DNA of 64,000 bases. Origin: a virus. Below, in pieces: positions 3,600 to 63,041 of the stretch (position 1 is the first letter of the stretch; each line of letters begins with the position of its first letter). The notes under the pieces are model-generated. The model saw only the letters and a program-made list of their open reading frames with translations, was not told where the DNA came from and made no database searches. Where the stretch lies: IMG/VR virus record IMGVR_UViG_3300010354_000069, positions 8,244 to 72,243 of that record; one strand, written 5' to 3'. The translations under genes and the position numbers were made by a program.

Positions 3600-3861
3600 C
3601 CTCGCGCGCACGCGCGCGGTCCAGCTATTGGTGAACTTCCCCCTAACTACTGCGTCCCCTCTCCCTCCTCTCCCCCAAAGCGGCGTTTCATAGGCAAGTA
3701 GCCATGCAGCGGCCAACCTTGGCGCACTTTACGTGCACGGAACAAGGGTAGAGGGGACGCAGAGCCGGTGCGGCCGCACCGGGGAGGAGTTGGATTTCCA
3801 GCTATTGGAGCCACTTCCACTACTGCGTTCTCTGCGTCCCCACGCCTTAACGCAGCAGCAT
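3600..3861 (-). ncRNA. Putative structured RNA (RNA2) with two imperfect direct repeats and an internal anti-repeat
   Basis: Repeats at 3621-3662 and 3798-3843; inverted copy at 3749-3764; palindrome CCGGTGCGGCCGCACCGG at 3765-3782; downstream of a promoter; no credible ORF. Confidence 0.5.
3621..3843. repeat. Imperfect direct repeat pair CCAGCTATTGG..ACTTCC..ACTACTGCGT..CCCC
   Basis: Copies at 3621-3659 and 3798-3841. Confidence 0.8.
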
Positions 3862-3866
3862 GCATG

Positions 3867-3894
3867 ACAATAGCATGCTCATTGCTCCTGTCAA
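3867..3894 (-). promoter_or_regulatory. sigma70-type promoter for RNA2
   Basis: Minus strand TTGACA-16 nt-TATTGT with an extended -10 TG. Confidence 0.55.
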
Positions 3895-4049: not shown

Positions 4050-4120
4050 CGCGTCTCGGTCGGTCATGGTTGCAGGTGGTTGGGAATGTTGCCGCCGTTG
4101 CTTGAAAAGGAGTCCAGCTA

Positions 4121-4438
4121 GTGGGTGGTGAAGAGTTGGGTGAGGCGGTTGGCAAAGTGCTGGACCAACTGGCTTCCGTTCTGGCAGACTATCTGCATGT
4201 TGAAAGCAAGCTTCAGGTGCACGCCCTCACGTGGACACCGGAAGCAACGTCAATTTACATTGACGATCCTCAGTTGGCCGGACACATCACACGTCGAGTC
4301 ACTACCGAACTTGGTGACATTCAGGTAGTTGTGGACCACGCAACCCGCGGCCCCGTATCAGTGGAACTTATCCAATGCCCAATATCGAATACACGCTCGT
4401 CAGCGATAACGACATTGAAGACGTTGTCCAGTACCTGA
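4121..4438 (+). CDS. Hypothetical protein
   Basis: AAGGAG SD before GTG; overlaps the polymerase start. Confidence 0.65.
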   Translation: MGGEELGEAVGKVLDQLASVLADYLHVESKLQVHALTWTPEATSIYIDDPQLAGHITRRVTTELGDIQVVVDHATRGPVSVELIQCPISNTRSSAITTLKTLSST

Positions 4439-31821: not shown

Positions 31822-32313
31822 ATGCAGTTTTACGTCAGCGCTTTAGGACCTATAGACACAGGCCGCCCGCTTCACGCCGACGCCGGCAAAACCTTCAACC
31901 ACGTAGGCATTCCTATCTGGTTTACTAGGGGTAGTTTGCACCGTGCTGTACACGTTCTAAATGGACCCTACCACGAACCTACTGGACTTTTCGTGGTGCA
32001 ACCTAACGAAGTGCTGGTGTACTTTGAGGTAAAGCAGCCCCCAGCAGGTTCTTTGCAAGAGCAGACCATGGGACTGCGCCCGGTTACCTACGCAATTCTT
32101 AGTGTCGACCGCAACTTCGTGCATAGCAACAGTTTGCTGTATCAATCAGTAGATCCTGATGCAGACTTTGAAAAAGACGACGATATCGCCGTCTGGTTTG
32201 GAATGACCTTTCCGGCAACTATAGTAGGTAGATTCAGAAAGCCAACGGATACTTTTCAGCCTCCTAAAGAAACTCGTGGCCACATGTTGAAGGACTCCAA
32301 CCTCTACAACTAG
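31822..32313 (+). CDS. Hypothetical protein, last gene of the + arm
   Basis: AAGGA SD; stop overlaps the giant gene stop. Confidence 0.7.
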   Translation: MQFYVSALGPIDTGRPLHADAGKTFNHVGIPIWFTRGSLHRAVHVLNGPYHEPTGLFVVQPNEVLVYFEVKQPPAGSLQEQTMGLRPVTYAILSVDRNFVHSNSLLYQSVDPDADFEKDDDIAVWFGMTFPATIVGRFRKPTDTFQPPKETRGHMLKDSNLYN

Positions 32314-35300
32314 TTGGCTCGCTTTCGAGCAGCACTAGGAATATCTCTACTACCGCTGCGACCCTGTCTGTGATAGTCACGGTCCAGCGTGTCATCCTTG
32401 CCCTTCTTGCCAGCATGCTCTTGATGGATGACCACCTTCTTGCCCTGTGGGTCAACCTCTACCTTAGAAGTACGGCGCTGAGAGTGGTCTTTAGTGCTAC
32501 CCGTCGGCACATCCTTTGCCCCGCTCTTGACACCACCGTGATTAGCCTTGGTATCGACAACAACAGTTGCATTCTTTGACTTGGCGGGGGCTTCTTTACC
32601 ATAGAACACGTTTTGAATGAACTCATCAACGTTTTCAATAACGTCATCGAGCACGTTACGTTCATACTTGTCGGATACCACCGCTTCGACTTCGATTGAA
32701 CCGCTTGAAGAAACGGTACCAGGTAGCGCTTGTTTGCTTGTGCTTGAAACACGTGCAAGCTCTTTAGTGCTACGAACGCTTAGTTCAGCAGCGGATTTTC
32801 CAACACGATACTTGGCGTCAATATGAGCATCAACAGATTTTACAAGGTGCTCGTTAATTTTTCCGTAAGCCCAAATATTTGCAAGAACAATACCAATACC
32901 TGCAAAGGTTCCTGCGATAGCTCCAGGAAGAGCACCAACACCCCCAGCTAGTGTACCGGCGGCAGCGCCTGTCAAAGCCGTCTTTACAACGAAACCAGCA
33001 GCGGCACTAGCCAAGCCAAGAATGCCTATAGTGCTAAGACCGGCCACACCGTGCCCCAAAGCACGCTCTCTAGCAACTCTGTCAGTACCCGCCTCCCTGT
33101 ATTCAACAAAGGTCTTGGATGACTCTACGACCACCATCAAAGGCAACGCAGCTTTGCTAGCTACTGCGGCAAGTTTCGGTGCCCACGTTGTAGCACCAAA
33201 TCGCTTTGTAACAAGAGGAACCATGCGTCCGTAGCCTTCAAGTGCTGCTTGTACAGCAAACAATCCAGTGCTTGCCTTAAAGAAGACTTCCTGCTCAAAA
33301 GGCATTTCGTACCCTTGTTTATGCAGCTTTGCCTTTTGGTCTTCAAAATCCATCCAACTTTTTACAGACATGGCAAGCATGAATAGAGGATTGCCAAGCT
33401 GTTGGCTGAACTCATAACTCTTCATGATCGATGTGTTGGCTAGCCGTTGTTGGTAGATATCTCTGCGGATTCGAGCCTCTGCCTGTTCTTGGCGCGCCAT
33501 AGGACGCTCTCTGGAAGTCTTGTCCAACCTTGAACGAATCTCTTCCTTGCGCTCCACTGTACGTTGAATTCGCTCTTCAGCCTCCTGCAACCGCTCAAGA
33601 GGTTTGCCGGCAGTACCCAAGCGTGCCCAAATATCTTGCTTCAATTGTTTTTGACGGTTTATTTCTTCCTCACGCTCAATCAGGGTTTGCAAAGGACGCT
33701 CACCCCGTGTTGCCTCCGTACGGCTACGAACTTCTTCGCGTCTAGCTTCTGCTACCGACTCGACTGCTCTGCGCTGCTTACGGGCGGCAATGAGCTCGCG
33801 CTGCCTATTTGCCAGAGTTTCTTGGTCAAGGCTATTCAAGCTGCGAGGCGTGGGGTTCTTGCGGAAGTCCCTGACAGCCCTACCCAGAACTAAGCGGCTT
33901 TCTTCATCCGCGGGTACGAAAGTACGCTTGGTGTAGCTAAAAGCTTGTGGAGTCTTTACTGGCTCGTCCGTCACGCTACGCTGAGCGCTCACAACGGGAT
34001 TGATGCTTGAAGCAGCAATGTCTTTTGATAGACGTGCTACTACTGCAACAAGCGATCTACCAGCTTTCAAGTATCTGTGTACGGCTTTTTCAACCAACTC
34101 GTCTGGATTTACAACGATTAGCTGGTCTACGTTACGCTCAACAGCACGCCAGCCTCTACCCAGTAACATAGAATAGCCGGCATAACCAAGACTGGCAATT
34201 GTGCGTGCAAACAATCTGTCAGTAAAGAGGTAAATGTCCCTAGCACCTGTAGATGCAGCCCTGTAAGCAGCTTCTCTAGCTACGATGTATGTCCTACCGT
34301 CACGTTCAATAGTGGTATTGCCAAGGTGCTTAAGAGCGTCACCGTTATCAAACATGCTAGGCTTGTTATACTTGTCGACAAGCAATTCAGCCGCTATGCC
34401 CGCAAATAGCTCTCTAATACCTGTGGACATGAGCTCATGAATAGTAAAAGAAGTAATACCTGGTTTTTCTGATCTACGTCGTACTTCCTCAAGAGTACGC
34501 TCTGCGTTAGAGCGCAGTTCTAGGTAGGTCTGCTCTGCAAGTTTTCCGTTAGGGTCTTGAACACCCATTTCCCTGTACATGGACTTGATGATTTCTCGCC
34601 ACTCCTGCTCATAAACTTCAGGAGCTGCCCTGAAATCCATGATTCTTGCGCCTGGCTTAAAACCGAAAGTCTGAACGTAGTGTGCGCTGCTGTAGTGCCC
34701 CCAACCGCTAGGTTTAATTCCTCGAACACCAGAGTAATCTGTGGCATCGTTTCTGGAAGGTGTCACGTAGAACCCGGCCCCTTCGGCCCAAGTGCCAGAT
34801 ACGTCCAACTCTGGAATTCCGTAAGGACGATAGTCCTGACCGTGGTAGTAAGCCCTGCTTGTAAGCCTGTCGGATATAGCTTGCTTTTCCGCAGTAAAAT
34901 CAACTACACCAGAGCGGGTTGTGTGTGCATCGCGCGCAAGTGTTGAAGTTTCTGGCGCCGCTGTACGAAGCTCCATGTCAAGTAGTTCGTGCGGTAGCAG
35001 ATTTGAAGCACTTTCAGTCTTTGGCAAAGACCTCCACTCGTATTTGGCCCTCTGTTCAGCCGCTCGAGTATCTGCCCGCATTTTCAGCATCAGCCTTAGC
35101 ATGCGAGCTTCTTTTTGAGCAAACCTGATGAGACTGCTGATAGCTCCAGGTTGACTGCTTGCTCTTTGCAACCGGTCTCTGTACGTCTGGTAAGCAAGAC
35201 GGCCAAGAACCGGTGCGGTTGCAAGTAGACTAGTGGCCAGAGTAGCAAAGTGCTCGGGCGTAATCAGAGTGCCAAAACCACTGGAAGCTTCTGCGGGCAT

Positions 35301-38300
35301 TGTAGCGGCTGCAACCAAACCCAAGCCAGTAAAAGCAATGGACATTAGTCGTCCGGAGCGCCCGCCAAGAATGCCTTTACGCTCTGCCGCTCGTTTAGCC
35401 AAACGGCTTACACGGTCTGCGGTACTAGCAGCAACGTGTGAGTAAGGCTCTATATTCCTTGAATACTCGGCGGGTATTACTTCTGGTAGGCTGGTCTCAG
35501 AAATATTGAGAACCTTCGCTATCTTAGTTTTATAGATGTTTATAAGCTCTACAGCTTTGTCCATCTCAACAGAATCTTGTTTAGGAGCAAATTCTTGAAC
35601 TAACCGCTTGGTATAAAAGTCAAGTCGTAAATCCATATCTCTGGTAATGTTACCAGCTGCATGCTTGCGTAGAATAGCATTTTTAATAAGGTCAACGCGC
35701 CTGTCTGTAAAGTATATCTGTTCGTCAGTAAGTCCAGCTGCATCCCTGAGGAAGTTGTACATAGTACGCTGTTCTGGATAAGCAGAGAAAACACTAGTAG
35801 TAGAGTTTACGTTAATACGCAACCTGCGGATAAGCTCTGGCATTACATTTATTGCTCTAGTTTCTACAGCAGCTTCTTCAAGGGCTAGTTCAGGCGCCGT
35901 AGCGTAATGCCCTTTTATATCGTAATCAAAGCCGAATCTAGCTAGAGCGCGCCTACGCGGGCTGTACTCGTGATGCACTTCGTGAGAAAGGATATGAAGA
36001 GTCGTTAACAAGCGTTCCAAAGACTTTTCTCTATATTCAAATGAAGCTACGCCAAGTTTATTTCTACTCTGACGTGCGATATCTAGTAGATACGGAGTAT
36101 ACTTATTTCTAACATTGATGTAAGCCATCATACCGCGCGGAGTGTGCATACCATCCCAGCTAAAAGGCATATTGGTCACTCCAATATCATTCAGCAGAAT
36201 AACAGGAAGGGGTAGGATTCCTCTTCTTTGTTCTCTAGGTAAAGTACTTCTAACAGCCTTTGCAGTTTCGTACAAAGCAAATTGCATAGCAGTAAGTTGT
36301 TTTGCAGTATCAACAAAGTGTCTTAGGCTTGCAACCGATCTTGCACTTATAGTTTTCAAAAAATCTATTGTTTGTCTAGGTTTCAACACAAGGCTCGCAG
36401 TAAGCGCAGTAGCGGTAGCCCCAAAAACACCAGCTGCAGCAAATTTCAGGTAAGGTACTAAAGTGTTAATCAGACTAGGGTAATGCGTAGTAATTTTACT
36501 AAGGTCGGGCTCCACCACAGTTTCAATCCTGAAGTGGGTTGCCGCTTCTGCAGGCATTCCAGCGGCTAGTGCAAGGCCTACACCAAGTAACCCTAGTGCC
36601 AAAGGCTTGGCACCACGCTTGAGGCTTTGACGAGCCTTCTCAAGAAGCTTTGGTTGTAGAGCTTTGAGTGTGCTGCGAACGTAAGTGAAACCTCTTGCTA
36701 CACTGACAGAAGATTTGTCTATGGTAGTAGTAAACAAATGGTGCGGTTTACGAGCAGAAGCAATAATGTCAGAAGAAGCTCTGTACCTGAGTAGCTGTAC
36801 TGTGTATTCACTTAAATTTGCTAAGTTCAAAGCCCCCAACCGCTTTATACGTTTACCTGGAACAACAGCATAAACAGTTGTTTCTCTCGCTTCTTTGGAG
36901 TCCATTAATACAAGCTGACCATTTTCGTTGAAAATGGTATTACGTACTCCCGCGTATCCTTGGCTTACAATACTGTCTCTAAGAGCTGTATGAACTGCAA
37001 CCTCAGAGTTGAAGTTTGGTGGTAGACCTTCAGCAGCAGTAAAACGAGATGTCATAAACTCTACTGCGCTCTTATAAAAGTATTCTACATTGTGTTTGTT
37101 GTCGGGAGTATCAAGAGCGTTAAGCAGACGCAGGAGCTCCGCATTGAACTTACTGCTAGTTTTTTCACTATCATTTACGTGAAGCAGCATAGTCTCAAAA
37201 GTGTGCTGCAACATTGTGCGTACTTCAGTCTTGTACACTTCAGCAGGCTGAGCAAAGTCTATAAACTGTGCAGTAGGGTTTAGCCTTACTTTTTGAACGA
37301 TACCAAACTGCTTTTTGGCCTTTGTTACAAGGGCTCGTACAGTCTTGCCTGCTGAGTTTACAGTAAGACCCGCGTAGTCAAGGGCTTGGCCAACCGTTTC
37401 AGCCATGTAGTAACCACGGCCGCCCCACCAAGAGCCGTGTAAAGAGGCTTCAGGAATACCAGAAGGTGCATGAGTTTGACCGTGGTAGTACGTACGGTTG
37501 GTAATCTGCCTTGAGATATCTTTCTTCAAAGTGGTGAAATCCAAAGCGGTGCGCGTAGGCTCGGCCTCGGAAGCGGGAACAACACTGGACAGAGGTTGAT
37601 TCTTATTGTTACCCCCAAAAAGCTTCTTGACTCCTTCCCAGCCAAGAATTCCGGCTGCAGAGAAACCAAGCTGACTCATCAGCAAAGCGTTGTCTGCGAG
37701 CGATGTGACGTGATGCCCAAACGGTAGCGTAGCTGCTTCAGCGGGCATTCCAGCGGCTAGAGCCAGACCTGTTCCTACCAGCAGGCCGAAGATACCGGAA
37801 GTGCGCTGCCCCCGCTCCCGCCTAGCTTTCTCTAGCTCAGCATCAATAACCGTCACCATAGAACTATCGTTTAAAATTTCGAAAGAAGGTAAGTCACGTC
37901 GTGCAATAGAGCTCAAAGACCTGTGTAGCCTATCAAGAGCTTTTAAACTTTGTTTATAGCTGCCTACAGGACGTCTAATGCTAAATCTGCTGCTATAGGA
38001 AGAAGGTACAAACACGTTTACAGCGTAGTTATTGATAACCTTTCTTATTCTTGTAGCTTGGCTCCGGTTAAGGCGAAACTTCTCTGCAATTTTTTCACTT
38101 AGTAGTTTTACACGATCCTCTTCGACATACAAAGTATCGCTTGTAATATCTGTAAGTGAAAGCAAGGCCCTTGTAAACATTCTTTGAAACTTATAGGTAG
38201 CGACTAAAGGAGCGGTACTTACAGTATGTCCAGTTAGCCTTCCTACAAATTCCCTAAGATGCTCTACGCTACCAATCTCAACAGTAGCTTCTTCTAAGGC

Positions 38301-41300
38301 ATATAGCATAAGCTTGTTTTGTTTACTACCGTAATAGTAAGCTTTTACTATACTTGGTGCGTGCACTAGAGCACCTAGTAAACCAGCACGCTTAATGGCA
38401 GACCTTACCTTTTTCATGTAATAGTCTTTAGCAACAGACGGATTATACTGAGTAGCTATAGTATTGCTAGCGCTATGTCTCAACTCGTGCAGTAGAGTTG
38501 AATAGCTATCACTTTCAGAAGCGGATAAAACTTTAGGTTGCTTATTAAAAGATCTTTCTAAGTCTTTTATGGCTTTATGCGATAAAACTATAAATCCACG
38601 ATCCCTGCGTGGGTATCTGGTGTAATAAGCACCAGAAGCGCTACCAAGCCTTGTATAATGTAGCCTTTGCGCTTCTTCGGGCGTTAAAAGATATTGAGCA
38701 CCGGATGTAGCAGCACCAGGAAACATTTGAGCAAGTGTAGTCTTAGCTTTTCTTAGTAAGTTCTGTCTGTCTATAAAGTTTGGATCACTAGAAAGCGCTA
38801 TTAGTTCTTTGTTATACGCATTTTCTAGAGCTTGCGGGCCAGAAAGCTTTCTGTTAGCAACAACCCTTAGTCTACGGTCTACTAAAAACAGTAAACCTGC
38901 ACCTAGCGTTCCAGCCACCATCGTAGCAAAAACGGACAAACCACCCCCAGAAGCTGCGTGGTGTGCAATCCGCGTAGCGGCTTCTGCAGGTGCGCCCAGC
39001 AGTGCGATGCTACCCAGCGTAATTGCGGGAAGAATACTGCGCTTTGCAAGCTTTAAAGCAGTGCTCTTGACCTTGTAGTACAGATGACTGAGCTTTGGCA
39101 GAATACCTGGCGGGAGCGGTAGCTTTCCGGTTTTCTTGCCATAAACATTGGGATTGAGTCCACCGGTAAAAGAGGGCGGCGTCAAGTTTCCGGTGCTTGG
39201 GTTTAGCGGACTTGTACGTGAAGAAGTAAGCTCGCCCGTACCTCGAGAACCCGCTTGGCTACCACCCAATTCGCCAGAGTCACCAGTACCGCCGCTCAGT
39301 CCATCAGAGCCGGTACCTCCCTGCCCAAAAGGCAGAGACTGCTGACCGTTGCGCCCGGAGGGTGCGGTACCTCTAGGGCTTGGAGTATTGACCAAGAAAA
39401 AGATATTTTCCAAAGTACGGTTTACTAGGTCTTGTGTAGTTTTCTCAACGTCGATGTTGACTTCTTGGCTGGAACCCTTACGGCCAATTGTGACTCGGTC
39501 TCCAATCTTGTTAGTTTTTGCCAAGAGGCCACGACCGCGTCTACGGCCAGGTTTAACGTTACGCGGAGCTTGTACAGGACCCCCTGAACCAAACTTCACG
39601 ATATCCGTAAACATCTGTACGAGCTCTTCAGTCACCTGATTGACAATGGCCGTGCGGTCAACACCTTCCTTCAGGCCCGTACCTTCAATGAGGGCTTCTG
39701 CCAGGAACTGCAGTTGGTCGGTAGCACTGCCTTGGTGAGAAGCCAAACGAGCGAGTAAATTTGCCCTACGCTCTCCGTAATTGATACGCTTCCTGCCTGT
39801 GTCAGGGTCTTGGTCAAAACGACGATTGATGTGTTCAGCAACCTTTGCCAAGTGTTGCATTGCAGCAACACCTTGCTGCAGCCTACCTTCAGCCAAACCT
39901 GTGCGATCTTCACCAAAACCAAACGGCAGGCGTAAGAAATTCAACTGGGAAGCGCCACGCATGACCCTTGCGCGCATGTTAAGTGCAGCACTGCGAAGTA
40001 TAGATGCCTTTACAAGAGTTTCTACAGATGGAGCTGCGGATGTAAAAGTTTTACCGTCTTTTGTATGCCTATGCTTGGCAAAATCAAGAATTCCGCCGCT
40101 TTCCTTATCAAGTAGAAAAGTACTAGAAAGTAGATGCTCCAGCGCCTGTATAACGGAGTTGTTGATCTTGTTTAGGTCAGTGCCAATGTCTTTTGTACGC
40201 TCCTCCTCAATAAGACTGATCTGTTCAGTAACTTCGTGTAGACGAGCAGTATCCTCTGGGGTAAAGTTCTCAGTGTCTTTTTCAAGCTTACGCTCAAGCT
40301 TTTTCCTGATAAGCTCAAGTGTGCGTAGTATTTCTTTTCTTCCCGTAGTTTCGTCATAGGTACGAATATTATCGTAGGCTTCTATGAATTCAGGAGAAAC
40401 AAGAACGGCAGTAGTGGGATTTTTAGCTCCTGTCGCAACTACACCAACAACAGATAGCGGTGAAATAGTTCTATCCGCCGTTTCCGCAGCAAGAGTATGC
40501 CCGGCCAAATGTAATGAAACAGACCCTGCTGAATCTTCAAGAAGTATCCTTGAAGCTACTGAATCAGGCCCAGCTGCAAGCTTTTCAAGAGTGCTGTTAA
40601 AACTTTTGACAAGACTATCAACACCTTTAACTGCATCGTGATCTTCAGGCTTGGGTACATCAAGCACTGAAGAGGGCTTTCTCACTTTTTTCCAGATACG
40701 CCAAACCATAAAGGCTGTAAATGCACCGCTAATCAATCCAGAAATTGTACCGTAGGTAGTATCGTTATCATCATCTTCATCGTACCTATGCTTGCCGTCC
40801 TCATTGGCGTTCTTGTTTATATCTTGATAGTTACGCTTTTCATTACGCTCACCGGTGTCAGTGTACGCGTTTGGATTCAAAGTAATCCTTAATGGTTCAG
40901 TAGAGCCAGGTAGAAGCGCACCACGCCTTGTAAACTCTTGGTTGTACAGGGTCTCGGCAGACTTTGCTATGTTTTCTGCAAAACCAAAGGATTTCCACAT
41001 TTTGGTGTAGGCGCCGGGCAAGCTATGCGCAGCATCCTTGTTCTTGCTGAGATACTCTTCAATTTGAGCCGCAGTAGGAACTTGAGTACTGCCCGTAGGC
41101 GTGGCAGTAGGCGTGTGCATAGGGTCAAGTACAGTACCTCCAGCACGTACTTCATAGTGTACGTGCGGGCCAGTCGAATGTCCGGTGCTACCTTGAATAC
41201 CGATGCGCTGCCCGCGCACCAGAATGTCTCCTACGCTTACGCCGACTTCGTTGGCCGCATCATCTGCCAAGTGCCCGTACAGGATATCAACTGGCTTACC

Positions 41301-44300
41301 CTTGACTTTTAGTTCGGTCCGGACGATTACTACGTTGCCGTAACCACCCTTGACGCCCTTTTCAATAACTCGACCACCCACGAAAGCTACTACAGGAACA
41401 TTAGTAGAGCCAGTCTTGGTGTCGTAGAACTGTATGTCTACACCTTGGTGCAGGTGTGTTCCACGGTCTCTTAGATAAGGGCTGGTGACGTTGTAGCTAA
41501 TGCCGCGCTCCGTTGCCACAGGAAAACCGGTAAGGCTAGGAGTAGAGCGCAGAATAGCGGTGTGCAGCAGCTCAGCGCGCTGTTTTCTAGTAGGTGCGTA
41601 CCCCAGAAAGTGACTAACTTGGTTGTAGGTTTCAGGATCGTCATAGGGCAGGTATTGCCCTCCTCTTGCCATTTGAGTTCTAACGCGCTGTGCAACATCC
41701 CTTGCTTCTGCCTTTGGCATCTTCAAGTTCTTGCTGATGTAAGCAGCAAGATCCGTTGTATTCTCGATGCCCTTGAGAGAGCCAAAGTGCTCGTTGATGT
41801 ACTTGTAGTACTCTACCTGTTTGATGTAGCGCTGTGTTTCCAGCGGGAGTTTGCCACCAGGCCTCAAAGAACGCATGAAGCCAGTAACACCAGCGTTGTA
41901 CGCAGCGGCTACCTCAAGATCCGTAGGAGCGCGACCTAGCTTTTTGACTAGCTCACGACGGAACTGAGCGAGAATATTGGCACCGGTGACAATACTGGTG
42001 CGGGGGTCAAAGAGGTTGAGCTTGCCCGTTGGGTCATGAGCTTCCGGAACAATTTGCATCAAGCCCCTGGCATTCTTGGGGGAAACCATGCGCTCGTTGT
42101 AGTCACCGCCGGTTTCAGCCTGCATGATAGACCTGATAAAGCTCTCGGCCTCACCAGAGCGTTTGCTGGCTTCCGTGATAAAAGCCGAGTACTTCTCAGG
42201 AACCGGGCCAGCACTGCCTGTGCGTACTGGTCCACCGGTTACTTCTGCAAGAGTAGACAGAATAGTACGTCTGCCAGGAACCGCACCTTCAGCTCTTTCG
42301 GCAGCACTTGTTCTGCTGCGAACTTCAAATCCACTCCAACCACCGGTGAACATGTAGTTGTACATGGCGTTAGCACCACCCAGTACAGCCGTTTCATACA
42401 TCAGAGCGCGGCGGTGCAGTTCACCCATGATAATCTGATCTACTGACGGTACGGGCGCAAACTTGAAAGCCCTCTTGGCAGACACATTCCCGCCACCGGT
42501 TCTGGGCCTAGCCATGTACATGGAGGCAAAAGACATGTTCAAGAGATTGTCGTTGGAACTAGACATCAGTCCGGTGTTTGAAAAAGACTGAAGTACTTCA
42601 GGCGCAACTACGGTAAGTAGTGACGCGCCAATACCACGCTTTGTAAAACGGACCTGTTCGGCAATTTCTAGCTTGGCCGCGGTAGACATCCAAGCGCGCT
42701 CGGAAGCAACACCGTAGAAGATGGGAGAGTACGAACGCCACAGTGCGTGCCTGGCAGAAAAGCTTGTCTCTCCGGCATCGCCTGACTCCAGAAGTCCAGC
42801 TTTAATTTGGGTGTTTACAAAGGTATCTGCCCAGTAGTTAAGCAAACCAGCAGCAAATTTTAGTGGCTTGTCAGAAACCTTCTTGTATTCCTTGTTCAGG
42901 GTCATGGACAGCAGGTAATCTGCCGACTGATTCAAGTAACCGGCTGCACCGACGTTAAACGTTCTAAATATCGCGGATACGCCGGTATTCAACTGTTTCA
43001 GGGCATCTACCTTATCAGCGTGTTCCTGCACCCAGCCAATACTGTCGATAAGACCGCCAATAAAGAACTTGTTTACACGGTCACCCCAGTTAAGTTCTTT
43101 ACCCTCTTTCTCTTTTGTTAGTGCTTCTTCGTACTGAGACTTACCTACTGCACTGCTTAGTGAGAATGATGCCCAGCCTACAAGGCCACCAACAAGTAGA
43201 CCCGCAAAGCCTGCAACCCGACCACCTTTTGCTGCCCCAAGCGCTATTGCTCCTGCAGCAGCTAACTCTGAGGTTTTCTTGGTTGCGAGCAGTGTACCGC
43301 CAAGAACAAAGGTTTTCCAAAGTTCAGAAGCACCTTCCTCACGAAACGTTTGTCTGGCCTCTCTAGAAATTGTTGGATCCGCAGCAATTGCAATGTTTGA
43401 TACTGCACCGTAGGCACCGGAGAGGAGCATCGGCCTTACAATAGCTTTGTCAGCAATCTTCATGATTCCAGAAATACCGCCTAATGCAAACGCACCAAGT
43501 CCAATACCATACAAGCCAAATGTCACGGAATTTTCATAAGATTCAGTTGTATCAAGTAGACTCTTGCTAAGAAGCGCCAAAGACGCTAGAAGAGCTGTTG
43601 CTCTAAATCCGTAACCCAGACCAGTCATAAAGCTGGAGAATCTTGTAATCCTAGTTGCGCTTTGAATGTTCTTCGACGCAATCCGCTCTTCCTGGGCGGT
43701 GCTAGCGGTGTGGTGGCTTGGATCTGCTGTGCCTATGGAGCCAGCACGAACCTCGTGTATACCGACGGCTGGAGGAGGTGGGGGAGGTGTACCACCAAGT
43801 TGCGGTTCGGGGACGTGAGCACCAACCGAACGAAGTTTCCAGAACGTGAAAGTCTTTCTGATGCTGCCAACAAACGTAGAAGCTCTCAAACCCGCGCGGT
43901 TCAAGAAGCCAGGCATATCTACAGGTTTAAGGCCCATGACGTCGTCAAAGTCACGGAACACGCCAAAAACAGTACGCTCAAATAGGTTTATTTCCTTAGC
44001 AAAGTCACCACCCGCAGTTAGTCTTGTACGAATGCCCTGCAGTTCGTTCATGGCGGTGAGGTAGCGCTTACCTGGAGACCACCCAGGCGGTGGTGCTGGT
44101 GAACCAGGGCCGTGCCCGGCAAAAGATTCCAGAATAATTTCAAGGCGCCTGATAGTTCCCAGCGTTCTGGTTACATCCTTGGTTTCTGCAAGCGCTTTGA
44201 TATCGCCATAAGTTTCAATGACAGCTCTAGCAATTTGTTGGTAGCCCAGAGCACGGGCTCGACCCGAAATGACACTACCTCTTGGCAATATTCCCTCGCC

Positions 44301-47300
44301 AAATGGCTCGCCGTTTGCCGCGCCAAGCATCGAGAAGCCCCCACCCGGTCTGGGCATCCTCAGTACCGAAGCGTCGGAAGGGTTATACTCAAGAGTAAGG
44401 GGATCCAACACCTTGCCCGCTGACGTCACCTCTACAGCGCGCATCAAGCGACGGATGTCAAAACCCTTAAGGGGATCGTCTGCCTTAAGATTCTTCGTTA
44501 CGTTGTAAGCCGCGCGCAAGGCAGGATCCCTACTAATAGTCAGCAAGGTCCTAGCGGCTGCAATCCCGTGGCCGGCAAACATTGCAGCTGTACCCAAAGC
44601 AAAACCAAGCCAGATGGCACCAATTCGAGTCTGCTGGTTACTGTTGACTTCGCTGTTGGAAAAGTTTAGCAAGAACTCTTCAGGACTACTGTTTCTACTT
44701 AACGGACGAAGAATTTTCTTGTTCATGCCAAAAGGCAATGTATCAAAAGTATCAGAATCATCTTCCATCTCTGTGATAGGCATTCCAGCTGCCTGCTGTG
44801 CAGCCTTGTGCCCCTCTATGTAAGCCATGATGCCCCTGTAAGTAGGAGACTGCTCCAAGGTGGCTAAGAATTCTTGATCAATGCCATCAGGCAATTTAAA
44901 CAGTTCCACCTCTTTGGCTTTTTCATAAAACCTGTTTGCGTACCCAGCGTATTCCTTGGCTAAAGCAGCAACATCGTAGGAATCGTACGGTTTCATTCCA
45001 GGTGCTGTACGAAGCGGGTTGACGATCAGTGGTCTAACGCCCTGAACCAAGTTGTTCTGAGTATCGTAGCGACCCATAGCATAGTGCGTGTAGTAAGCCT
45101 GTTTTGATAGGCGAGAGTATCCGCCTACATATGCTTTTTCACCACCCAAGTAGTCGTTCATCTCTGCTGGCCAAGCTACAAGTGCCGTTCGCGCAAGAGC
45201 CTGACGGTTGCGGAGTGCCAGTTTAAGACCCGGCGACAGGTTGTATACCGGCGACTCCGACGAGAACATGCGCCCCATGAACGCCGGCTTACGAGCAGGA
45301 GCAAATCCTGTCAGCATAGTGTAATCGCCGTAGGTTGCCATCGCCAGCGAGGTCCCGCCGAGTACTTTGTTCTGGGGATTCTGCGGGCGCACGGCTGCAA
45401 TCTTGTTTGACGCAACAGTAAACAGATTACCGAAGCCCATCGAGAAGCGACCTTTGATTCGTGTAAAGCCGGTGGTATCCTCATCGCGCTCGGTTTGCTG
45501 GGCTGCGGCATAACCATGCTGCATGGCCACGATTTCAGGCCCTTGAATAACACTCTCGCTGCTGAAAGCCGAAAGTACCTTTCGTATGCTCCAGTTGATT
45601 CGCTGTGCCAAGCCCTTCGGTGTGACAGGGAATTTGCCAACAATAGGGTTCATTTCTATGGCAAATGAATCGGTTGGTCTTGAGATAATGATTGGCTGTA
45701 CATCACTTATCTTGCGCTCGCCGCTATTGGCATTTACAAGAACACGAAACCCACTTTCCATAAACTTGTTGAAAGTGCTGGTAACAGCGCCTAACGGAGT
45801 ATTCGGATCGTTGTAATCAATCTTGTACCGGTTTATCTGAGATTGTATGTAAGAACCCGGCGTACCCTCATAGTTACGCTGGTGCAGATTGTAAACAATA
45901 CGTCCAGCCTCAAACACCATCAATGACAAACCAATAGTAGCCAAAGATTGACCTGCGCGTACTGGAGCCATGAAACCACTAGAGAACGACCCACCTAAAA
46001 CCTTTGACGCGGTACCGGTAAGAACACCCACGGGTGCAGTCACGGGTAGAGTAACCACCCGCATGAGCGCTCGCATGGCTACACCGGGTCCCCTGAGCAG
46101 AGTACCAACAACGCGGCGAGCGCTAATTCCGCTAGCACCGCTAGTAGTCTCTGAAGTAAGTATGTTGCCAATATTTGTTAGCGGATCAAGAGAAACTCTT
46201 GTATCCTGACCATACTTCAGGTACCCGGTTACGCGCTCGAACAGCGAGGAAGCGGGAGGCTTAACTCCAGTCAATAAAAGCTCTCGAGCCTGGTAGTGTT
46301 TCTTGGCAGCTAGGTTAGCCAGTGCAAACGTCGTTCCTACTGCAAGTGCAGTAAGGGTTGGCCCAGCAATAGCGGCAGCACCTACATTGAGCTGTGCCAC
46401 TGCTTCCACAAGTGTCGATGGCTTGTAGCCTAAGGACATGATGTTCAGAGCAATTTTGGAAGCAAAGCTTGAAGCGCTATTTTCTTTATTACTTACTGCG
46501 TCGTACAGCAAACGATCAAAGTAGTTGTTGGATTCCTTTACGCCCCTTAGCCAGTACTCTAGCTGCTTGTAGCCGCGCTTTTCCATTCGATAGAAAGGCA
46601 TCGACATAGTGCCAGATCCTTGAAGGGGCAGCGGTGTGATGAAGGATATAGCGTAACTGGTGCGACCGCCCTGTGTAGCTGCGCTAAGGAAAAGTGCCGG
46701 ACCACCCATCCAGCCTATACGCAGGCCGTCAATAGACATCTGATTGATTTCAGACTTGTAGGCAGTAACCGAGAAGTTACGGAAAATGTCTAATGTCTTT
46801 TGAATTGTGCCTTGTACAGCCCCAGGATCACCGGTTATTTGCCCTCTAAAACCTTCGTTGTCCAATTGGCGCATGCGGTCACTAGCCGTCATTGCTGCTG
46901 CTTGCTGTTGCGTGACTACCTTCCAGCTGAAATTGTCTCTGTCAGCCTGAATCATCTTGACGGTGTTGCGGTACAAGGCAGTCGGCGTATTGGCAATGAA
47001 CTCGGTTACAGACTTCAGCGCCCCGCGAACGCTATTGAATTGCCTGAAACCCTGCGAGTACATGAAGGTAAGAGCACCAACTTCCTCCTGGGTGCCATCA
47101 GCTTTGGTAACAACAACGTTTCTAGGAACATTGAACATCTTGTTGGCTTGTCTGAAGCTGGTAAAACCTCGTCCAGACAACAGCTCTGTCAGACCTCCCG
47201 CAACGCTGCCACCGACAATACCGGCAAGGAAGGTACCAAAACCTCTACCACGGGTTACTGCCATACCAGCGCCAAAACCCAGCAGCGACGCAATCTTCGC

Positions 47301-49910: not shown

Positions 49911-51890
49911 CTACCAGTCCTTCTGCGTAATCCTTGTATTACGCATTGAACCAGTGTCGGTGTTGCTACTTCTGCGCGGATCAACCAGTTTTGCACGATC
50001 TGCTAGCTGACGCTCCTCAGCAAAGAGATCGTTGATAGCGCGTGCGGTGTGAATCTGTCCGGAAGTCCTGATATTGTTGGAGCCGGTTTCAAAATAGCGG
50101 AACCTACGCTCATCCTGAGAAATTCTGTAGACAACGCAAGCCAAGCAGTCTGACAGATCTTTCGAGCCCTTTGGTTTGGGGTGGTCGATACGACGCCCAT
50201 TCATCAATTTGATTTCAGACAGTTCCTTGTGGAGCTTGGCTGCAGCAGGACTTTGGTCAGGTGGTGGAATGCGTACGCGGTCCTGATCAATCCACTCGCG
50301 CAGTACTTGGTATATCTTGCGCTGCTCGGTCTGGCTAAAGCTGGACTTCCACAGCTCGGTCGAAATGCCGGCAGAGTAGATACGCTGAATCATCATTGCA
50401 CTATTCCAATGGTCGAAAGTCAGCTTCTTCAGGTGGATGGACTTGGATAACTTGATAATCTCGTCGCAGACGTTTTCGTAGTCTACCAGGTAGATGTCGC
50501 CTCGACCCTTATCCACCGGACGCCACTCCAGCACAGCATTTACCTGTACGATCACGTTGCCCGTCAGCGGGTCTACGACAGGATGTGCCGAGAGAAAACC
50601 AAAGCTGTCGTGCTTGAGACCAGGATCGCAGTGACCAAAGCTGAACATCGCACCTTTAACGACTTCCTGTGGAGCAATGACTTCAATAGACGAAAACTTT
50701 CGCGGGCCGTCTGGTCCTTGCTGTACCGAGATCTTTGGAATGTAGTCGACCTGCAACGGGTACTTCGAAGCGCGAGCCAGTGCGTGCTTGTGGAAGAAAT
50801 TCTCTTCCGACCCAGGTCGTACGCCCGCGTAGTCTCGCATTGCCTCAACACCGCGAGTCAGGTATTCGGCCTTGATGCTGGGATGTTCCTCCTTGAGCAG
50901 AGCAAACTCCGGGTTCATATCCCAAGTTGCCAACCTGAATGCCAGAATGTGACTAGCTTCACCCTCAGCGTTGATGAACAGTCTATCCGTCAGGTCGCCC
51001 TCGCACCAAGCAGAGCTGATGACAATCTTTTTTGAGCCGAAGCGGGACAGCGTCAGGGTACCCTTGCCGACGTTGGCATAGAGATCGACGCCAGATTGAC
51101 CAGAGCCGCCTTCAATACCAAAGCGGTTAGCCTCGTCCATCGCAAAGATCATCAACGTACGACCGACCAATCCCGAGCTGTTGCTATGACCGGCCCAGAT
51201 CGTGATGTTCTTGGAAGGGTACTGAATATCCAGCGTGTTGATGATCAGCTTGCCTTGCTGCCGCAAGCCCTGAAAGTAAGGTGCCTGCTCAAGTCGGCCC
51301 TTGATGTTGGCAAACAGAGTATCCTTGGACTGCACTTCAGTTGTAGCAAGAACCAGCAAGTGAATGGGTGATCCGGCCATCAGACCAAATTCCTTGGCGG
51401 GATCCGGGTGCTGAATCAACTTGAAGTACTCGTAAGCACAGACAACGGAGATGATTGCGGTCTTCGAGCTTCTCATCCCCGCCTCAAGGCTGAGTTCTTG
51501 GTAGTGCTGGCCCTCAACCCAAGTGGTCTTGCCCTCGATGGCCCAGTTTTGCAGAATCTCGCGCTCGTCCCAGTAGTCAGTAGCCTTCTTGCCGTACTTG
51601 GCGAGCTTGCCCTGAACCTCTTCCGGCCGTCCTTTGAACAGCGAACCCCACGTACCACGCTCCAGCGGTAGTTGGTAGAGTGCTTTAAGAATGGCTCGCT
51701 GGCTAGGCCACAGTTCAATCTCAAGGATATCCGTCGCAAACTCGACAATATCCATCTCGAGCTTGGCCCGCTGCATCCCTTCGGAGATCAGCTCCGAGAG
51801 CAGCAGGTCGCTGGCGTTTACTGGTTTGCGGTTGCCTGGTGGCACTTGATTAATCCGTAAGAACGCCTCTGTACTGGAACTTGGCAGCAC
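49911..51890 (-). CDS. terL: Terminase large subunit
   Basis: AGMRSSKT, FAMDEA, ISS, HCDPG...DS, TFDHWNS, RIDHP..GSKDLSD; exact start uncertain. Confidence 0.88.
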   Translation of the reverse strand: MLPSSSTEAFLRINQVPPGNRKPVNASDLLLSELISEGMQRAKLEMDIVEFATDILEIELWPSQRAILKALYQLPLERGTWGSLFKGRPEEVQGKLAKYGKKATDYWDEREILQNWAIEGKTTWVEGQHYQELSLEAGMRSSKTAIISVVCAYEYFKLIQHPDPAKEFGLMAGSPIHLLVLATTEVQSKDTLFANIKGRLEQAPYFQGLRQQGKLIINTLDIQYPSKNITIWAGHSNSSGLVGRTLMIFAMDEANRFGIEGGSGQSGVDLYANVGKGTLTLSRFGSKKIVISSAWCEGDLTDRLFINAEGEASHILAFRLATWDMNPEFALLKEEHPSIKAEYLTRGVEAMRDYAGVRPGSEENFFHKHALARASKYPLQVDYIPKISVQQGPDGPRKFSSIEVIAPQEVVKGAMFSFGHCDPGLKHDSFGFLSAHPVVDPLTGNVIVQVNAVLEWRPVDKGRGDIYLVDYENVCDEIIKLSKSIHLKKLTFDHWNSAMMIQRIYSAGISTELWKSSFSQTEQRKIYQVLREWIDQDRVRIPPPDQSPAAAKLHKELSEIKLMNGRRIDHPKPKGSKDLSDCLACVVYRISQDERRFRYFETGSNNIRTSGQIHTARAINDLFAEERQLADRAKLVDPRRSSNTDTGSMRNTRITQKDW

Positions 51891-52422
51891 CAGACTTCAG
51901 GGCGTTGTACTTGACTTCAAGGAGCGCCTTGAATTCCTTCCAGTAGATCTTGATGTCCTGCTTTTCACTGCGGCCAACCTCAATGTCTACGTGGTAGTGG
52001 TCGGTAACCGCTTCAAGCGGCAGCTTGTGCCAAGCAACAAACTCGGCAACAAACTGGGCAGCAACTTCCAACTGGGCCTTTGTAATAGGTGCCTCGCCAA
52101 GATTGCTGGGCACGGCATTACGCATGCCGCAGAGACTTATCCCTACAGTGCCCGTGTTGGCTTTGAACGCATGACGGCCCTTCTCGGTAAGCTTCAGCAG
52201 TTTGACTACGTGCGCTTTGTCCTTGAGTTTATCGTAGGGAACGCAGTAGTGATAAACGTCGTGTACCATACGGTAGGAACCACCGGTCCAGTGCATGATG
52301 ATACGCTTTATCTTGCCTAGCTTCATGCTGCGCTGATCATTTTCTACCTCAAGCACAACGTTCAGGCCATCTACATCGTGGTTGCCGTCACTGTGCTCGT
52401 CGGAAAGGTCAATGTAACCCAT
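51850..52422 (-). CDS. N-acetylmuramoyl-L-alanine amidase (endolysin)
   Basis: IIMHWTGG, YHY, HAFKANTGTVGISLCG, T.AQLE, DH; start placed at MGYID. Confidence 0.85.
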   Translation of the reverse strand: MGYIDLSDEHSDGNHDVDGLNVVLEVENDQRSMKLGKIKRIIMHWTGGSYRMVHDVYHYCVPYDKLKDKAHVVKLLKLTEKGRHAFKANTGTVGISLCGMRNAVPSNLGEAPITKAQLEVAAQFVAEFVAWHKLPLEAVTDHYHVDIEVGRSEKQDIKIYWKEFKALLEVKYNALKSGAAKFQYRGVLTD

Positions 52423-52423
52423 T

Positions 52424-52885
52424 TCAGATGTCTCCCGTAACTGCAGGATGCAGTACAACTACCAAGTAGAGTGTTGGAAGTAGTGTATCAGAGCTGTACC
52501 CGATATAAAAGAAGTCGCCGTGCTTGAGCTGCTGTAGCCACAAATTATCGTAGATGTGCGCGCCAAAGGTCATAGGGCGCAGATGCGGTACTGTGAGGTC
52601 GTCGTCAGGGTTGTCCACAAAATCTACCGAGACCGTGTAAACGGGCGTGAAGGTCTTGTCGTAGACCGTGTAGCCTTCAATATCAACGTTGTTCAGTCTT
52701 ACGTAAAAATTAGCGGGTTCTACTATAACCACACTGTGCGGGTGCGTGATCATCTTTTCAATCAGTTCAGGCTCAAGTGCAGCAAGACTCCTGATGCCCT
52801 GTGGAGCTTTGCGTATGATTGGATTCAGGACGTCTAGAAGCTCAGGATCGTGTAGGTATACTTGAGTAATACCATTAATTTTCAT
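52424..52885 (-). CDS. Hypothetical protein
   Basis: Coupled ORF. Confidence 0.7.
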   Translation of the reverse strand: MKINGITQVYLHDPELLDVLNPIIRKAPQGIRSLAALEPELIEKMITHPHSVVIVEPANFYVRLNNVDIEGYTVYDKTFTPVYTVSVDFVDNPDDDLTVPHLRPMTFGAHIYDNLWLQQLKHGDFFYIGYSSDTLLPTLYLVVVLHPAVTGDI

Positions 52886-62627: not shown

Positions 62628-63041
62628 TTATTCCGTTTCGACGTAGGAATTCTTGGGCTGCACCGTATCCAGATTAGCTTGCCACGTGCGCAAACGCAAG
62701 AACTCTATGGCTTCATCCAAGAGTTTATTGTTCTTTCCTTCAATGATTCCAATTGCCTTGACGTTTTGAAGAAAGCTGATGACCTCTTTTATACCGACGG
62801 CAAGCATGATCATCTCTTCAAGCATTTGAGCGCTATCAAAAGAAATAGCTAGCCCGTGAAGAGCAACAAAAACAAGCGTGTAGTTGATCAGCTTTAGAAA
62901 AGCTATGGGAAACAGACTCCAAGAGAACGTTCCGCGCTTTACTTCTCTAATGACACCAGTCAGCCAATCACCAAGCACGATTAGTACAACAAAGATGTAA
63001 GACTTGACTGCAAAAAAGGCTACAAGGTCTTCAAGAAGCAT
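62628..63041 (-). CDS. Phage holin family protein
   Basis: Three TMs, DWLTG, E.IS.L.N...IG. Confidence 0.75.
   Translation of the reverse strand: MLLEDLVAFFAVKSYIFVVLIVLGDWLTGVIREVKRGTFSWSLFPIAFLKLINYTLVFVALHGLAISFDSAQMLEEMIMLAVGIKEVISFLQNVKAIGIIEGKNNKLLDEAIEFLRLRTWQANLDTVQPKNSYVETE

Follow-up and report, generated by a model that had tools for sequence, protein, structure and literature searches.

How are the effector-like modules of a giant phage protein set apart from one another, and could they be released as separate units? This question is raised by an open reading frame (ORF) of the viral contig IMGVR_UViG_3300010354_000069 (IMG/VR). The window analysed here is the 64,000-nucleotide stretch at positions 8,244 to 72,243 of that record. 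The giant ORF (P0001) occupies window positions 32310-49910 on the minus strand and encodes 5866 amino acids (aa) counted from a TTG start. The gene-caller version, P0002, has 5784 aa and its start is taken as Met83. All aa positions, including those of an earlier reading made from the DNA letters (the sequence-only reading), follow the TTG-start numbering of the 5866-aa ORF. The C-terminal half of the protein carries four cassettes built around the tetrapeptide PAEA. We tentatively view these cassettes as procoat-type hairpins in a protein of the polyvalent kind, with the host type I signal peptidase (SPase I, LepB) as the enzyme that would most likely cut after PAEA.

Four PAEA cassettes in one polypeptide

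PAEA is present exactly four times in the giant protein, at aa 3641, 4056, 4453 and 4872 (window positions 38979-38990, 37734-37745, 36543-36554 and 35286-35297), with spacings of 415, 397 and 419 aa. From the composition of the protein 0.158 copies are expected, and at least four copies were seen in 0 of 2000 shuffles (maximum 2). All four cassettes follow a common plan: 5-6 Lys or Arg residues (K/R), a hydrophobic stretch of 16-19 residues, PAEA, a loop, a second hydrophobic helix and 3-5 further K/R. Their limits are as follows.

38847..39080, minus strand: cassette 1, aa 3611-3688; KVK..KLAKR, helix 1, PAEA 3641-3644, 15-residue HH loop, helix 2 at 3660-3676, DRRLR..R
37602..37847, minus strand: cassette 2, aa 4022-4103; LEKARRERGQR, helix 1, PAEA 4056-4059, 15-residue HH loop, weak helix 2 at 4075-4091, EGVKK
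36339..36650, minus strand: cassette 3, aa 4421-4524; LEKARQSLKRGAK, helix 1, PAEA 4453-4456, loop of about 36 residues, helix 2 at 4493-4509, KPR
35157..35393, minus strand: cassette 4, aa 4840-4918; KRAAERKGILGGRSGR, helix 1, PAEA 4872-4875, 11-residue loop, weak helix 2 at 4887-4903, R..RDRLQR

The charges are distributed asymmetrically. In cassettes 1 to 4, the 15 residues before helix 1 hold 5, 5, 6 and 5 K/R, the 15 residues after it hold 1, 0, 1 and 0, and the 15 residues behind helix 2 hold 5, 3, 4 and 4. The loops, of 15, 15, about 36 and 11 residues, contain 1, 0, 3 and 0 K/R and 0, 1, 3 and 1 Asp or Glu (D/E), and every loop is preceded by the Glu of PAEA. No further cassette of this kind was found in any reading frame of either strand over all 72,243 bases of the contig. 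A relaxed contig-wide scan for P-[AS]-x-A after a hydrophobic run gave six matches, the four cassettes and two others without the surrounding context.

The sequence-only reading had reported four cassettes at these positions, with the same spacings and flanking peptides, and the ORF scan confirms them, together with the basic residues, the hydrophobic stretch and the P-A-x-A motif that it had seen in each (4/4). The short loop that it described is found in cassettes 1, 2 and 4 (15, 15 and 11 residues) and not in cassette 3 (about 36). Its second helix ending in K/R stands as far as the charges go, 3-5 K/R following in 4/4 cassettes, and is marginal as a helix in cassettes 2 and 4. The layout of n-, h- and c-regions with A-x-A that it invoked agrees with the sequences of all four, as do the -3/-1 rules, with h-regions at the long end.

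The combination of features is largely specific to the cassettes. We scored hydrophobic segments for at least 3 K/R upstream, A-x-A closing the helix on its C-terminal side and no more than 1 K/R behind it. For comparison, we used the giant proteins of two cyanophages, gp120 of Microcystis phage Ma-LMM01 (2898 aa) and the giant protein of the Microcoleus phage My-WqHQDG (4151 aa). The signal-like combination is present in 4/4 first helices of the cassettes and in 1 of the 52 other hydrophobic segments of the three proteins, namely 1/14 of the other segments here, 0/12 in gp120 and 0/26 in the My-WqHQDG protein (0/38 for these two together).

Alignment of the four regions gives about 20% identity overall, and the invariant residues are a Gly, P-A-E-A and one downstream His. 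Met occupies position -5 in 3/4 cassettes, and positions +1/+2 are [AS][TS]. Cassettes 2 and 3 share 16/20 residues around the motif, and 10 of these 16 are encoded by different codons. The PAEA codons also vary among the copies (CCT/CCC, GCA/GCT, GCC/GCA/GCG/GCT). At the DNA level the cassette cores form the top-ranked direct repeat family of the region, at just 64-83% identity. Because the codons differ and the DNA identity is this low, the likeness of the cassettes points to selection at the protein level and not to recent copying. Recent gene conversion was rejected for the same divergence of codons between copies. By these comparisons, the cassettes are paralogs under purifying selection, with the motif kept at the protein level.

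No start codon with a Shine-Dalgarno-like motif lies ahead of any cassette, and cassette 1 is without any start-like codon. Internal translation starts at the cassettes were rejected on these grounds, so that the cassettes appear as internal elements of one polypeptide and not as separate genes. Other classes of signal were also considered. Direct reading rejected a twin-arginine translocation (Tat) signal, as no twin-Arg motif adjoins the h-region, and a lipobox, as Cys is absent. A PEP-CTERM/sortase-type signal, whose motif adjoins a membrane helix and basic cluster at the C-terminus, does not match either, since PAEA comes after the helix, lies 11-36 residues from helix 2 and is internal.

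A predicted hairpin topology and its possible processing site

The M13 (Ff) procoat, the product of gene VIII, inserts into the membrane as a hairpin with both ends cytoplasmic, and is then cut by the host leader peptidase. It has a basic n-region, a signal helix ending in small-x-small, a short loop, a second helix and a basic C-terminal flank, as do the cassettes. Read with the same script, procoat shows 3 K/R, the last basic residue lying 15 residues ahead of the cut, then S-F-A followed by A-E, a 20-residue acidic loop, helix 2 and 4 K/R. All the elements of a procoat-type hairpin, that is a signal helix, a loop without net positive charge, a second helix and a basic flank, are found in the cassettes. 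The differences concern size and setting. Procoat has 73 aa and an N-terminal signal, whereas here four units lie within 5866 aa and a module of about 320-370 aa comes after every one. From the last basic residue to the site, the first helices here count 20-23 residues vs 15, and the sequences are not homologous. Processing of procoat by leader peptidase is documented in literature cited in a review of the enzyme (PMC9360617).

The sequence-only reading had drawn its parallel with flaviviruses. Their polyproteins share with the giant protein internal signal-like helices and the zig-zag topology predicted for it, and they are cut by host signal peptidase on the non-cytoplasmic side, as would be the case here. 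In flaviviruses, however, the enzyme is that of the eukaryotic endoplasmic reticulum, the virus is an RNA virus and the whole proteome is concerned, whereas here it would be a bacterial plasma-membrane enzyme and one accessory protein of a DNA phage; the likeness is an analogy only. Flavivirus polyproteins are matured by host signal peptidase at internal signal sequences. As an analogy, the M13 procoat hairpin is the closer precedent.

According to the review, SPase I substrates have residues at -3 and -1 that are small and uncharged, a helix breaker somewhere between -4 and -6, and a residue other than Pro at +1 (PMC9360617). All four cassettes have Ala at -3 and -1, Pro at -4 as the helix breaker, and Ala or Ser at +1. 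Their upstream basic residues (5, 5, 6 and 5 K/R in 15 residues) agree with the n-region of SPase I substrates. The distance from the last basic residue to the PAEA site, 20-23 residues vs 15 in M13 procoat, is at the long end for an h-region. The cassettes depart from ordinary signals of this enzyme in their position, 3600-4900 residues into the ORF instead of at the N-terminus. Since A-x-A sites exported in this way would conform to what type I signal peptidase needs, it is the host enzyme that would be the most likely to cut after PAEA.

Three elements lie upstream of the array.

41883..42179, minus strand: SLT lytic transglycosylase domain, aa 2578-2676 (Pfam PF01464 and motifs)
41121..41453, minus strand: peptidase M23 domain, aa 2820-2930 (Pfam PF01551 and motifs)
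40680..40751, minus strand: single predicted membrane helix, aa 3054-3070, followed by RIWKKVRK (charge and hydrophobicity scan)

The SLT match has E 4.4e-12 and 46 bits vs a Pfam cutoff of 21.3, and ETGG, GLMQI and AYNAG are all present. The M23 match has E 1.1e-16 and 61.3 bits vs a cutoff of 28.7, with HxxxD (HQGVD) and HVH present. With scores above the curated cutoffs and the catalytic motifs in place, profile and motifs agree in identifying both domains. The helix at aa 3054-3070 has 6 D/E ahead of it and 5 K/R behind it, and is predicted to run with its N-terminal side outside and its C-terminal side inside. The sequence-only reading had pointed to this helix, ending in WKKVRK, and it is indeed present with these charges, spanning aa 3054-3077 when that ending is counted. 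The topology that it proposed, with SLT/M23 outside and the later region inside, is consistent with the positive-inside charge counts. Since the positive-inside pattern is repeated in 4/4 cassettes, the modules are predicted inside and the PAEA loops outside. A self-consistent path of the chain would thus have SLT/M23 outside, an out-to-in helix at aa 3054-3070, four modules inside and the PAEA loops outside.

The protein could then work as follows. About 2500 aa without a recognised family would be followed by SLT and M23 domains acting in the periplasm, an out-to-in anchor helix and the array. From the cytoplasmic side, each hairpin would insert into the inner membrane of the host and expose its loop to the periplasm, and the hairpins would hold alternating zincin-like and ADP-ribosyltransferase-like modules on the cytoplasmic face. 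Insertion might accompany translation in the producing cell, or follow ejection by a post-translational route, which is also open to procoat. A cut by host signal peptidase after PAEA would free units of about 400 aa, each tethered at both ends, by helix 2 at its N-terminus and by helix 1 of the next cassette at its C-terminus. The full claim, that of a tailed phage effector polyprotein matured by host type I signal peptidase at four hairpins and releasing doubly membrane-anchored alternating enzymes, we advance with somewhat greater reserve, as plausible and somewhat doubtful.

Zincin-like and ADP-ribosyltransferase-like modules and their genomic setting

The modules delimited by the cassettes are of two types in the order A-B-A-B, type A comprising modules 1 and 3 and type B modules 2 and 4.

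37848..38846, minus strand: module 1, type A, zincin-like; HELRH at aa 3808-3812, ALEEATVE at 3871-3878
36651..37601, minus strand: module 2, type B, ADP-ribosyltransferase (ART)-like; YYHGQ at 4141-4145, GYYM at 4166-4169, ALDYAG at 4176-4181, VRLNP at about 4208-4212
35394..36338, minus strand: module 3, type A, zincin-like; HEVHH at aa 4643-4647, ALEEAAVE at 4676-4683
34041..35156, minus strand: module 4, type B, ART-like; YYHGQ at 5021-5025, GFYV at 5046-5049, ATDYSG at 5056-5061

Modules 2 and 4 are homologous (BLASTP, 28% over 270 aa, E 2e-20), and modules 1 and 3 are weakly similar (24% over 142 aa, E 5e-4). In type A, HELRH or HEVHH is followed 58 or 28 residues on by the conserved ALEEAxVE. 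The ALEEA motif also appears as DNA repeat D2. This layout of motifs is that of a zincin in which a Glu further along the chain acts as ligand. Common to the type B modules are YYHGQ, G[YF]Y[MV], A.DY[AS]G and V..[LF].[NK]P, in this order.

Both types recall the polyvalent proteins (Iyer, Burroughs, Anand, de Souza, Aravind 2017, PMC5512222), giant phage proteins that join unrelated effector domains. As described in the main text of that study, transglycosylase/lysozyme, zincin-like metallopeptidase and H-Y-type ART domains are common in them, and metallopeptidases are often interspersed (PMC5512222). The ART-PolyVal active site is given there as His of strand 1, Tyr of strand 2 and Asp of strand 5 (PMC5512222). 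In the giant protein, SLT and M23 domains above the Pfam gathering thresholds are likewise joined to two module types in two copies each. Unlike described members, its modules reach no Pfam model, and an RNA polymerase module was not found in it. A phage protein with the relevant domains is the virion RNA polymerase of the N4-like Roseovarius Plymouth podovirus 1 (RPP1), in which, by Pfam, aa 1023-1096 match ART-PolyVal and aa 1252-1387 match a zincin. Its YHG..GLFFT..ARDYA block resembles the type B modules.

An ART profile was built from the RPP1 region and five further phage examples (six regions) and compared by hhalign. The alignment places YYHG..G[YF]Y..DY of type B on the YHG..G[ILF][FY]..[DE][YF] block of the six ART-PolyVal regions (E 0.0068). 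The ESM Atlas offers leads only: the second-nearest cluster of module 2 is named 'ADP-ribosyltransferase in polyvalent proteins' (score 0.84), and the nearest family-named clusters of module 3 are zincin-like (M78 0.89, NleC 0.79). In one of the phages consulted, the crAss-like phage cr130_1 (L010, ~790), an annotated 2074-aa coding sequence has an in-frame table 11 stop just past an ART-PolyVal-like region, which fits stop-codon reassignment in that phage.

Several results count against these module identities. Searches of Pfam and NCBIfam with six pieces at permissive thresholds gave nothing credible except DUF6861, and a PDB sequence search gave 0 matches. For ART-PolyVal (PF18760) there was no Pfam match at an E limit of 10, a setting at which the HMMER filters drop most matches above about 0.1; as a positive control, the same kind of search picks up ART-PolyVal in the RPP1 protein (E 9.8e-09). 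When the ART and zincin regions of RPP1 were compared with aa 3600-5300 by BLASTP, no match had an E value under 0.2. The hhalign probability for the ART-PolyVal block is just 5.6%. The strand-5 Asp lies outside the hhalign alignment; by eye, the corresponding residues read G-D-A in module 4 and G-Y-A in module 2, and module 2 has Ala at the presumed position of this Asp. AlphaFold2 models of the modules, from two-sequence alignments with the paralog as sole partner, reached a predicted local distance difference test (pLDDT) of 33.8 and 38.2 and are unusable. We infer the enzyme nature of the modules from motifs, a weak profile match and a language-model lead, and the ART assignment of type B is suggestive. 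The one enzyme domain per unit of the sequence-only reading is putative and has its basis in motifs, as no family model matched.

Relatives were sought at several levels. Among similar-length candidates from 5.8 billion clustered proteins, aa 3600-5300 and aa 1-2550 retrieved just the giant protein itself, and phmmer with aa 3615-4813 against 1.84 billion representatives gave 0 matches. In tblastn searches of 50,697 phage records, nothing was found for aa 3001-5866 or aa 1-2500, and aa 1-3000 gave M23/SLT matches alone. A blastn search with the cassette-region DNA gave no match, no relatives of the module region were found among IMG/VR viral and JGI metagenome contigs, and a terminase-anchored search for related loci among viral contigs was also negative. 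The ART region of RPP1, used as a protein query, retrieved no match. Two loci in IMG/VR fit a degenerate DNA pattern for GMPAEAAT; neither has hydrophobic context or an open frame, and both were rejected as chance.

The gene lies next to the terminase gene, as listed here with the remaining features of the protein.

49911..51890, minus strand: terminase large subunit, upstream neighbour of the giant ORF (PHROG 17415, E 3.5e-18)
32310..49910, minus strand: giant ORF P0001, directly 3' of the terminase large subunit gene
39081..39323, minus strand: Gly/Ser/Pro-rich low-complexity linker before cassette 1, about aa 3530-3610, read from the translation
33561..34040, minus strand: charged Arg/Glu-rich stretch, about aa 5291-5450, helical by inspection, read from the sequence
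32856..33182, minus strand: C-terminal Gly/Ala-rich membrane-helix cluster, aa 5577-5685 (hydrophobic segments and DUF6861 match)

The giant ORF starts 1 base past the stop of the terminase large subunit. The terminase itself has 32.8% identity to that of Ma-LMM01 (tblastn, E 7e-70), and the phage is probably a distant relative of the Ma-LMM01-like cyanophages. The viral contig is linear and 72,243 bases long. Because CheckV gives its completeness as 35%, it is probably a fragment of a larger phage genome. Its plus strand encodes a DNA polymerase, a clamp loader, helicases, a primase and a ribonucleotide reductase. At the start of this replication block lies an ORF of the HNH endonuclease family (420 aa, window 543-1805, plus strand, PHROG 1314, E 1e-46). 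No prohead protease or capsid gene was recognisable on the 72-kb contig. Just upstream of the terminase, and overlapping the start of its ORF, is an Amidase_2 endolysin-like gene (window 51850-52458, minus strand). A Phage_holin_4_1 gene (window 62628-63041, minus strand) is found about 10 kb further upstream. Three large ORFs of 706, 697 and 1057 aa lie between these two genes; the first matches only phrog_37225, of unknown function (E 8e-07), and the other two have no family match.

Large proteins with wall hydrolase domains and hydrophobic segments are known from virions, among them T7 gp16 and T5 Pb2. These ejection or tape-measure proteins resemble the giant protein in their size, their place in the virion gene cluster, their SLT and/or M23 domains and their membrane-inserting segments. 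Arrays of signal-like hairpins between enzyme modules are not known in them. The M23 region has PHROG matches that include tape-measure, lytic-tail and minor-head families. Association of the giant protein with virions is putative.

Other parts of the chain have their own features. No family, PHROG or phage-record match was found for aa 1-2500 (window 42411-49910). This region contains about ten Gly/Ala-rich hydrophobic segments, and candidate roles for it include a channel, a tape-measure-like function or packaging. The Arg/Glu-rich stretch, between module 4 and the C-terminal helices, holds two similar segments, REEVRSRTEATRGERP and KEEIRSRLDKTSRERP. The C-terminal cluster, with its two to three membrane helices, precedes a Lys-rich tail about 180 residues long. 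The DUF6861 (PF21724) match within it, at aa 5633-5674, is borderline (E 1.6e-06, 28.2 bits vs a cutoff of 28).

By terminase, Ma-LMM01 and My-WqHQDG are the two nearest relatives; their giant proteins are also encoded downstream of it and are rich in Gly/Ala hydrophobic segments. Their genes (L011 22480-31176 and L012 22926-35381) lie one to two small genes past the terminase, and the two proteins are homologous to each other (best segment E 7e-26). BLASTP, phmmer and hidden Markov models (HMMs) of their shared segments found no similarity between them and the giant protein, and homology to either was rejected. The My-WqHQDG protein, the one of the two scanned for these motifs, contains no HExxH and no YHG. 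Across these phages, a giant gene after the terminase thus appears as a conserved position without conserved sequence.

Competing explanations and significance

Several points weigh against cleavage by the host enzyme at procoat-like hairpins. Side chains at -2, -4 and -5 of SPase I substrates are solvent-exposed, and the review states that almost any residue occurs there (PMC9360617). Because SPase I leaves these positions unconstrained, part of the motif conservation needs another explanation. In the cassettes, the invariant P(-4) and E(-2) and the mostly present M(-5) exceed what the enzyme needs, and such invariance fits a more sequence-specific protease at least as well. Its source may be hairpin formation and loop export, or indeed a more specific protease. 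With 20-23 residues from the last basic residue, the first helices may be uncleaved anchors. Helix 2 is marginally hydrophobic in two cassettes: its 17-residue sum is 3.67 in cassette 2 and 5.04 in cassette 4, vs 0.03 and 1.84 in cassettes 1 and 3. These sums, on the scale of Hessa et al. 2005 and without position terms, are to be taken as rough, and the same crude scale underlies the hydrophobic segments counted in the three giant proteins. Failure of helix 2 to insert in cassettes 2 and 4 would break the topology. If the protein travels in the virion and is ejected from outside, it must first get to the cytoplasmic side to insert in this way. Finally, the module region and the N-terminal 2500 residues are orphan sequence, the cassette evidence comes from one protein, and the whole case rests on this single orphan from an incomplete viral contig.

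Part of this evidence would be accommodated if the cassettes were permanent, uncleaved membrane staples with the same topology. The C-terminal half would then be one chain sewn through the membrane eight times, its four modules held at the inner face, possibly around the DNA-entry site, and PAEA would be a helix-ending acidic hairpin tip aiding translocation of the loop. All the hairpin evidence (charges, layout, specificity) applies equally to such staples, which we regard as possible, if on the unlikely side. In procoat, an acidic loop is moved across the energised membrane, and an invariant Pro and Glu, which SPase I does not need, would make sense for a turn and for this kind of transfer. 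The 20-23 residues after the last basic residue suffice to span the membrane as anchors, and small-xxx-small patterns in both helices (GLLVG, GLALAAG, GAGLL) suit tight helix pairing. A turn alone, however, needs no Ala at both -3 and -1 in 4/4 copies with drifting codons. Moreover, an exported A-x-A after a Pro and a signal-like helix is an SPase I target, and loss of the motif would be the easier escape from cleavage. Alternatively, PAEA could be the site of a sequence-specific phage protease, either the protein's own zincin-like modules 1 and 3 or a prohead protease, cutting before or during packaging or after ejection, while the helices would serve packaging or membrane contact. T4 and phiKZ proteases recognise L/I-x-E and S/A/G-x-E, respectively, motifs at odds with P-A-E. 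Four invariant residues, Met at -5 (3/4) and [AS][TS] at +1/+2 surpass the needs of SPase I, two HExxH modules alternate with other modules, and Iyer et al. propose that metallopeptidases free neighbouring domains (PMC5512222). Such a protease would leave the strict order of basic residues, hydrophobic stretch, loop with few basic residues, hydrophobic stretch and basic residues unexplained. The predicted topology puts the sites in the periplasm and the zincin-like modules in the cytoplasm, and the contig offers no recognisable prohead protease or capsid gene for comparison. We consider this explanation improbable.

Two further explanations reverse the topology or dispense with it. After ejection, the hairpins might invade the membrane of the target cell from its periplasmic face and serve as pores or translocators, with their loop tips ending up in the cytoplasm. 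Comparable to helical hairpins in the diphtheria-toxin T domain or to transmembrane regions in some type VI effectors, they would transport the modules through the membrane or build a DNA channel. Wall-degrading SLT and M23 domains are typical of ejected or tail-associated phage proteins, the PHROG families matched by the M23 region (tape-measure, lytic-tail and minor-head) and the position directly after the terminase suit such a device, and the loop tips hold Glu and His. The charges speak against it: 3-6 K/R per flank would be outside and the loop with few basic residues inside, contrary to the positive-inside pattern in 4/4 cassettes. NAD-dependent and zinc-protease-like modules would also be stranded in the periplasm unless further steps are assumed, and we judge a pore device very improbable. 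It is also conceivable that the cassettes are fossil N-terminal signal peptides of once-separate genes fused into one ORF, now without function. Each cassette does resemble an ordinary N-terminal signal peptide ahead of a module, and the module alternation looks like a duplicated two-gene unit. Functionless remnants are nevertheless difficult to reconcile with modules that are down to 24-28% identity while cassettes 2 and 3 keep 16/20 residues with 10 synonymous differences. A start codon with a ribosome-binding motif is found at no cassette, and fossils seem to us extremely improbable.

Weighing these explanations together, we retain procoat-like hairpins cut by the host signal peptidase as a tentative interpretation. 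Of what the sequence-only reading proposed, the anatomy, the logic of the topology and the fit to SPase I rules hold up, whereas cleavage is a prediction from sequence logic and the enzyme identities of the modules have motifs and weak matches behind them. It knew of no described phage polyprotein matured in this way, and none was found, by titles and the openings of abstracts, in the literature searched, most of it outside subscription journals. The protein is best filed, on its predicted features, as a polyvalent-type giant phage protein with effector modules delimited by procoat-like membrane hairpins.

In the current view, polyvalent proteins travel into the cell together with the DNA and are afterwards split into separate effectors, and the proposal made in the main text of the study that defined them is autoprocessing by their own metallopeptidases (PMC5512222). 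The terms 'transmembrane' and 'signal peptide' have 0 occurrences in that main text, supplement aside, and hairpin-delimited modules therefore lie outside the polyvalent theme as it is described there. If our interpretation is true, procoat-like hairpins would place effectors at the membrane and leave their cleavage to a host enzyme that is itself essential, which would be a new route of phage protein maturation. It would be a bacterial-virus counterpart of flavivirus polyprotein processing, and a new way of partitioning injected or late effectors. The cassettes are short and portable, which makes them a directly testable system. Even if they are not cut, the membrane-tethered ART-like and zincin-like modules that they delimit would extend beyond the described polyvalent theme and point to host targets at the inner membrane.

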